DNA of 64,000 bases from Escherichia coli (GTDB lineage: Bacteria; Pseudomonadota; Gammaproteobacteria; Enterobacterales; Enterobacteriaceae): assembly GCF_044647545.1 (NCBI RefSeq), contig NZ_CP172818.1; one strand, written 5' to 3'. Under the pieces are notes generated by a model. That model ran no database searches, was not told where the DNA came from, and saw nothing but the letters and a program-made list of their open reading frames with translations. The position numbers and the translations under genes were made by a program. Positions 30,377 through 31,205 of this stretch are shown here, one piece after another. How positions within the stretch are numbered: position 1 is the first letter of the stretch; the number at the start of each line of letters is the position of its first letter.

Positions 30377-31205
30377 GGGGCTATCCTCTTTCTCAGGGGG
30401 GAAAGGGAGAAAGACGGAGAGGCCGCGCAGGGATCGGAGACCCGGAGGTGCAACCGGAGGGGTGGGGGGGCGGGGGCCGGGGGGGTGGAGGTGTTGGGGG
30501 GGGGCAGGGAGACGGCGAGGTGCTTGCGTTTCTGTTGCCGCGTTTGGGGGAGGGAGAGGGGAGGGGGAGGGGGGGGGGAGTGTGGGGGGGGGGGGGGGGA
30601 GGGGGGGGGGGGCTGAGGGGGGGGGAGCGGTGGGGCTGGAGGGAGGCGGGGGCCGCGGGGTGGTGGGCGGGGCGGGGGGGGGGGGGCGGCGGGGGGCGTT
30701 TCCCGGGGGGGGGGGGCAGGCGAGGGGGGGGAGGGAGAGGGGGGAGCGGTGACGGCCCCTGGGCTTTTTTGGGGGAGGAAGGAGGGGGGGGGGGGGGGGG
30801 AGGAGAGAGGGCGGGGGGCGGGGGGGGGGGGGGGGGGGGGGGGGGGGGGGGGGGGGGAGAGGAGAGGGGGGGAGCGGGGAGAGGGGGTGCCGCCGGTGCG
30901 GGGGGGGGGGGGGGGGGGGGGGGGGGGGGGGGGGGGGGGGGGGGGGGGGGGGGGGGGGGGGGGGGGGGGGGGGGGGGGGGGGGGGGGGGGGGGGGGGGGG
31001 GGGGGGGGGGGGGGGAGGGGGGGGGGGGGGGGGGGGGGCGGGGGGGGGGGGGGTGTCGTGCTCGCGATGCCACGGAGGTGGCGGCGTGTTGGCTGTGGTG
31101 GAGGGACCGGCGCTTTCTACGTTGCCCTCGGCGCGGTCGGTCCTGTCGCGCGCTTCGGGCGCCCTAGGGGAGGGATAAGAGCGATCGGTGCGAATCGCGA
31201 GGGGG
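30377..31205. repeat. Non-native low-complexity poly-G block at the position of the K-12 immigration-control region; probable artefact or engineered filler
   Basis: G homopolymers up to about 120 nt (30901-31038) broken by scattered a/c/t; compositional break against both flanks. Confidence 0.85.

Follow-up and report, generated by a model that had tools for sequence, protein, structure and literature searches.

A G-rich block separates mdtM from yjiA

We analyzed a 64,000-nt window of an Escherichia coli chromosome (contig NZ_CP172818.1), in which two minus-strand genes, mdtM (29176–30381) and yjiA (31333–32289), are separated by a garbled, G-rich block of 945 nt (block 1; 30382–31326, no strand assigned). 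In the closest relatives of the strain, 1,824 nt of ordinary sequence stand at the same place. yjiA is intact, with 100% identity to the relatives, and 6 nt separate its stop codon from the block. At the other side, the block has replaced the first 9 codons (27 nt) of mdtM; codons 10–410 remain intact, with a T>G change in mdtM at window position 30378, at the very edge of the block. The limits were obtained by alignment to complete genomes: identity to strains MS14385 and SE15 ends at 30381 and restarts at 31327, and SE15 matches the window at 99.9% over 29000–30381 and at 100% over 31327–33000. The left edge can also be seen by eye, as ordinary sequence reading ...AAAAACAGCG turns abruptly G-rich at about 30381. 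An initial annotation, made from the letters of the window, had noticed the G-rich block between the two genes and had placed it at 30377–31205, limits that the alignments revise; it was also right that mdtM is clipped, though by 9 codons and not by the 11 or so that it proposed.

Over its full length, block 1 consists of 64.7% G, 13.3% C, 11.3% A and 10.7% T, with G reaching 69.5% in the 30377–31205 interval, and a plot of GC skew over window positions 29800–31800 climbs to +0.9 at the block. The block had been described as near-pure poly-G, which by composition count suits a core of 270 nt (30784–31053, no strand assigned; 91.5% G) and does not suit the block as a whole. The core contains a run of 116 G (30900–31015) and a run of 38 G (30820–30857). 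After the 116-nt run the next longest are G38, G22 and G17, so that the homopolymers over 100 nt reported earlier come down to a single one. By chance, about 2e-5 runs of at least 16 G would be expected per 64 kb. In the remaining 62 kb of the window, outside the garbled blocks, the longest G run is 8, and every run of at least 9 G falls either in block 1 or in a second garbled block (block 2) described below.

The open reading frames within block 1 reflect this composition, with 50–56% Gly on the plus strand and 62% Pro on the minus strand, which bears out the poly-Gly and poly-Pro parts of an earlier description of these frames as poly-Gly, poly-Pro or poly-Arg. A codon-like 3-periodicity, which would be a sign of foreign high-GC coding DNA, was sought in the GC-rich junk and none was found. 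The tract itself is present in 0 of 5,426 complete E. coli genomes, relatives with 100% identity included, and a 49-mer taken from it is found neither in GTDB representative genomes nor in JGI metagenome contigs. The chimeric MdtM and the poly-Gly and poly-Pro frames are likewise absent from a collection of 15 billion proteins, which is a weak test as start-codon conventions differ. Exact matches to the truncated MdtM came only from the ends of short-read contigs in unrelated samples. A natural tract would be expected to recur with variable length at the same site in relatives; in the relatives, that site is occupied by an ordinary sequence of 1,824 nt.

The lineage naturally carries a short mdtM–yjiA spacer

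The sequence around block 1 belongs to a known wild lineage. The 18.8-kb stretch from block 2 to block 1 shows 100% identity to complete genomes that include MS14385, WP4-S18-ESBL-09, DFL.5, EC11, E17 and CUVET20-PYO4. In MS14385, positions 6808–10879 of the window are matched identically, positions 11545–30381 differ only by the T>G change at 30378 and by two deletions of 1 nt each, and positions 31327–64000 are identical save for one cleanly absent IS1 and a patch of 39 nt. The leftmost part of the window (1–6750) has 1 mismatch to another natural genome.

The interval between mdtM and yjiA is 1,824 nt long in MS14385 (NZ_LR130555.1, 4285857–4287680), WP4-S18-ESBL-09, CUVET20-PYO4 and SE15, and it holds no hsd, mcr or mrr genes. 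Its contents are the 5' end of mdtM, what remains of a dienelactone-hydrolase gene, a pseudo-copy of IS1, and brnT and brnA. This short IS1–brnTA spacer occurs in 1,113 of 5,426 complete E. coli genomes (~20%); a slightly rarer arrangement, with mrr adjoining yjiA, occurs in 951 of the same 5,426. In K-12 the yjiA–mdtM interval spans 19.4 kb, and not the roughly 30 kb given in the initial annotation, and it contains mrr, hsdRMS, symE, mcrBC and yjiP to yjiV. Within 100 nt of the junctions on either side, several SNPs set the flanks of block 1 apart from K-12; the flanks carry the SNPs of the relatives instead, with the brnA-type haplotype maintained right up to the junctions.

Judged from these alignments, the lineage lacks the K-12 restriction island at mdtM–yjiA naturally, and relative to this lineage no island is missing from this position. 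The immigration-control region had been expected here by comparison with K-12; the lineage has a 1.8-kb spacer without hsd, mcr or mrr in its place. The absence of hsdRMS, mcrBC and mrr from the site is then presumably explained by the lineage never having had them there, and not by a deletion marked with poly-G. We consider the 1,824-nt spacer of the lineage to be the most likely true sequence under block 1.

Both edges of the block bear a relation to natural breakpoints. The left edge lies 10 nt before the point at which natural alleles diverge, much as block 2 begins 9 nt before an IS1, and the right edges of both blocks coincide with natural junctions. Several independent short-read and metagenome contigs (Logan and ENA) stop within ~20 nt of the mdtM start. 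As this start is the divergence point of E. coli lineages, assembly graphs built from mixed E. coli are routinely interrupted at this point.

Two further garbled patches lie at unrelated loci

Block 2 (10880–11544, minus strand, 665 nt, with a run of 25 G at 11468) is a degraded copy of IS1A. It lies between nanC and a fimH remnant, exactly where the relatives have a 768-nt IS1A plus 9 nt, and the IS1A of the relatives at this site has caused a natural deletion that runs from fimB through most of fimH. Given this natural, IS1-linked loss, the strain should lack type 1 fimbriae. Three relatives of independent origin (Australia, Japan and Thailand) have both the IS1A at the fim site and the IS1–brnTA spacer. 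In a global alignment to IS1, block 2 scores 560, against 392±11 for shuffled sequences. When the block is divided into thirds, these stand over background E. coli sequence by z values of ~2.7, 15 and 3.2, so the middle is best preserved and both edges are junk. A consensus of mixed strains was considered as the source of these junk ends and found no support, since they contain no ghost of fimB-upstream or fimH sequence.

The third patch is a GC-rich stretch of 39 nt without any T (57698–57736, no strand assigned) in the yjjV–yjjW spacer, and it is found neither in MS14385 nor in any complete E. coli genome. From a permissive alignment, it is probably a compressed, A/T-depleted ghost of one ~100-nt BIME/REP unit. 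Each of the three patches takes the place of repeated DNA (an IS1, a spacer that contains an IS1 copy and, probably, a REP unit), and the other DNA of the window matches relatives; no intact IS1 is present anywhere in the 64 kb. Garbling therefore coincides with multi-copy repeats and unique DNA is accurate, although block 1 swallows ~1 kb of unique DNA, namely ~270 and ~790 nt flanking the IS1 pseudo-copy of the spacer, brnTA included.

The errors are deletions of A/T and insertions of G

Block 2 allows the corruption to be described against a known original. Over its best-preserved 309 alignment columns, there are 229 matches, 3 substitutions, 69 deletions and 8 insertions. The deletions remove 52 A/T, 13 C and 4 G, and all of the insertions are G. 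In the global alignment of the block, 36 of 46 mismatches are changes to G. The patches are shorter than the sequence they replace, with 776 nt reduced to 665 in block 2 and about 101 nt reduced to 39 in the third patch. Outside the patches, single nucleotides have been lost from C runs at 11843 and 17525 (CC>C and CCC>CC), the latter within the yjiC pseudogene; both changes are confined to the window when it is compared with three relatives, and they may be residual consensus errors of the long-read type. Errors dominated by deletions, shortened homopolymers and stray 1-nt indels are thus all found in this record. A/T dropout, G insertion and poly-G together are not, to our knowledge, documented as the raw noise of any platform.

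Traces of natural sequence inside block 1

The last 128 nt of block 1 (31199–31326, plus strand) contain a recognizable ghost of the mrr 3' end and its REP sequence, of K-12 type, with ~85–87% identity (E 7e-27). There are 8 deletions at this right end of the block, and 7 of them shorten homopolymers. Over the last ~45 nt of the block (31283–31326), the sequence is a fine-scale hybrid of mrr-type and brnA-type alleles. This hybrid junction does not occur as a natural recombinant allele in any of the 951 mrr-bearing genomes, and none of the complete E. coli genomes has an mrr remnant in a short mdtM–yjiA spacer or joins these flanks to the mrr end.

A second trace is an exact 12-nt match (GGTGCTTGCGT-type; 30518–30529, plus strand) to the start of the IS1 pseudo-copy of the lineage. 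It is roughly colinear with its counterpart, lying 14.5% into block 1 and 17.3% into the true spacer, and we estimate that ~0.1 matches of 12 nt would be expected by chance (945 x 1824 / 4^12). The match is weak evidence that the true sequence may be the IS1–brnTA spacer.

Broader attempts to recognize an original under the block gave little. Treated as a degraded copy of the 1,824-nt spacer, block 1 has a global score of 375, below the 461±8 obtained with shuffles, and none of its sub-segments matches the lineage spacer above the background of natural sequence. Against the whole 19.4-kb K-12 island, significance is reached at the mrr end only, and no other K-12 island sequence was detected in the block. 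With gap costs set very permissively, 30382–30560 could be aligned marginally to the 3' end of hsdM in inverted orientation (score 108; the highest of 12 background samples reached 86), an alignment that we judged to be spurious.

The block is best explained as noise at a repeat

We conclude that the G-rich block is almost certainly non-biological and constitutes filler in the sequence record. An earlier suspicion that the tract is an artefact foreign to enterobacterial genomes is thus upheld, both by its absence from all complete E. coli genomes and by the two further garbled patches. The origin that we favor, with a probability of about 0.6, is assembly or consensus noise at repeats. The record would be a hybrid or long-read-derived assembly in which unique DNA has been perfected and repeats have kept an uncorrected long-read or gap-fill consensus. 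The noisy channel would drop A/T and insert G, giving way to G runs in its worst stretches, and the poly-G core would be base-caller or consensus junk. Two links lead to this explanation. Block 2 can still be recognized as a true IS1, heavily corrupted, so that the process behind the corruption must have drawn on the real molecule; and the combination of A/T deletions, G insertions and stray C-run deletions favors an assembly that was gap-filled or derived from long reads. Low-complexity junk is a recognized class of read in long-read data (PMC6966772). For poly-G assembly artefacts specifically, we found nothing documented in the literature. Two observations sit uneasily with noise of this kind. 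Block 2 reproduces, with noise, sequence of the strain itself, whereas the recognizable part of block 1 is mrr-type and not brnA-type, and a noisy reading of the expected brnA sequence would leave this mrr-type right end unaccounted for. Polishing should also have fixed the unique DNA, including brnTA, that lies under block 1.

The main rival is that the patches are generated or synthetic filler, written by a learned sequence model or left by some other deliberate corruption or in-painting, which we regard as possible but doubtful. Such a model would render common E. coli sequence (IS1, the K-12 yjiA–mrr junction) imperfectly and fall into degenerate runs of G. The mrr ghost and the allele hybrid at 31283–31326 resemble the recall of over-represented K-12 sequence, and when the minus strand is read, block 1 decays gradually from yjiA and stops abruptly inside mdtM, its edge 10 nt short of the natural divergence of alleles. 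Homopolymer loops and GC-rich pseudo-sequence are typical failures of sequence generators, and the degenerate G runs of block 1 match these failure modes; the block is, moreover, absent from every public collection that could be searched. On the other side stands block 2, which is a colinear, correctly oriented IS1 at a position where most E. coli have none. Since the flanks alone cannot predict an IS1 there, whatever process wrote the block had access to the true sequence. The deletions in the mrr ghost, nearly all of them homopolymer shortenings, are an error type that arises at the level of signal, and the isolated losses of one homopolymer nucleotide at 11843 and 17525 point to a sequencing consensus.

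The leading explanation in the initial annotation was that poly-G reads from the dark cycles of a two-colour Illumina instrument (NextSeq or NovaSeq) had been assembled or gap-filled into a contig break. On two-channel instruments a G is the call made when there is no signal, and this fits the nearly pure G of the worst stretches of block 1, the predominance of changes to G among the block 2 mismatches and the position of the breaks at IS1 copies, where short-read contigs end. We nevertheless consider it unlikely, and it loses its first place on the pattern of errors. Dark cycles should substitute G for other bases in register, and such changes are almost absent: A/T deletions and G insertions prevail, with 3 substitutions against 69 deletions in the best part of block 2. 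The shrinkage of the patches (776 to 665 nt, and about 101 to 39 nt) is also foreign to sequencing by synthesis, which does not skip bases in this way. Reads running leftward from yjiA would give poly-C, and not poly-G, on the plus strand, and ~945 nt of graded junk amounts to several read lengths.

A hidden island is slightly less probable still. Here the strain, unlike its clonal relatives, would have an island or an IS1-truncated island remnant that ends in an mrr 3' fragment beside yjiA, and the assembly would have collapsed over it. The mrr ghost (31199–31295), which would then be a noisy but true reading of the strain, is highly significant, the noise process does reflect true sequence in block 2, and the locus is hypervariable across E. 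coli, all of which speak for such a remnant. Against it, the flanks carry the brnA-type haplotype up to the junctions, all of the closest relatives examined have the IS1–brnTA spacer, no complete genome joins these flanks to an mrr end, and the 12-mer from the IS1 start of the lineage itself is present in block 1 in a roughly colinear position. Genuine biology, whether a natural poly-G or G-quadruplex tract or the scar of a laboratory Delta(mrr-hsdRMS-mcrBC) deletion, is scarcely credible, as the only thing that speaks for it is that the record contains the tract. The tract is missing from every one of the 5,426 complete genomes, no natural G run in the window exceeds 8, and two more garbled patches occur at unrelated loci; in addition, the flanks are not those of K-12 and mdtM is decapitated at an arbitrary point. 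The engineered deletion, which the initial annotation had also raised, was rejected specifically: wild isolates of clinical and environmental origin match the flanks at 100% identity, and the SNPs that the flanks carry are those of these isolates and not of K-12. The endpoints of such a deletion would be expected inside the island, leaving yjiP to yjiT and neighboring genes in place, and the block instead abuts mdtM codon 10 and lies 6 nt from the yjiA stop.

Comparable tracts and consequences for annotation

A precedent for block 1 exists in another RefSeq "complete" genome, that of E. coli MLI104K2 (NZ_CP116925.1, 2378698–2390807), in which more than 7.6 kb of junk made up of G and A only lies beside a prophage terminase. 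This junk is contained in a coding sequence, NL420_RS12470 (2383604–2395777; 12,174 nt), annotated as a hypothetical protein of 4,057 aa. The MLI104K2 tract is a database artefact of a related kind. The two cases share a G-dominated tract in an otherwise normal E. coli chromosome, the proximity of mobile DNA (a prophage in MLI104K2 and IS1 in the window), survival into the deposited record and the readiness of gene callers to make open reading frames of such junk, which in block 1 are poly-Gly and poly-Pro. They differ in that the MLI104K2 tract contains G and A only, is far longer and has no ghost of a true sequence, whereas A, C, G and T all occur in the blocks of the window, and these pass by degrees into recognizable copies of IS1 and of mrr/REP that have many deletions.

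Other sequences to which block 1 may be likened resemble it in part. With the poly-G of two-channel Illumina data it shares long G runs with occasional other bases, situated where short-read contigs break, and it differs in its errors (A/T deletion with G insertion), in a length of several reads and in a plus-strand polarity beside yjiA that does not fit. The SE15-type spacer is what 100%-identical relatives carry between exactly these flanks, yet block 1 has no significant colinearity with it save the 12-nt match to the IS1 start. The immigration control region of K-12 occupies the same chromosomal slot, and the last 128 nt of block 1 resemble its mrr 3' end and REP sequence, but the flanks of this lineage are not of K-12 type and the rest of the block is at background.

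For the biology of the strain, the block gives no new element, no deletion event and no inference about defence, and to conclude from a "deletion" that EcoKI, McrBC and Mrr have been lost is unwarranted. Its effects on automated analysis are more tangible. A gene caller would produce a decapitated mdtM with a poly-Pro N-terminus together with poly-Gly "proteins" of 170–240 aa, brnTA and two IS1 copies would wrongly be counted as lost in a comparative scan, and the locus, when read against K-12, yields a false "ICR deletion". The lesson is one of data quality, as similar G-rich junk is present in at least one RefSeq "complete" genome.

Natural variation elsewhere in the window

Two further differences from MS14385 were observed, at a distance from block 1. 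A mosaic boundary lies at window ~6750–6808, to the left of which the window is near-identical to CM2010-0578/1 and to the right of which it is identical to MS14385. The left side carries sgcC/sgcX, yjhP, yjhQ–topAI and a yjhR remnant; upstream of the same boundary, MS14385 has an island encoding SNF2, a DNA methyltransferase and a helicase instead. The boundary looks like a breakpoint of recombination or of island replacement. In the osmY–ytjA spacer, at window ~55470, MS14385 has an IS1 with a GGGAGGCGCG target duplication where the window has a clean empty site, and this presence or absence of IS1 is a natural insertion polymorphism inside the clonal group.
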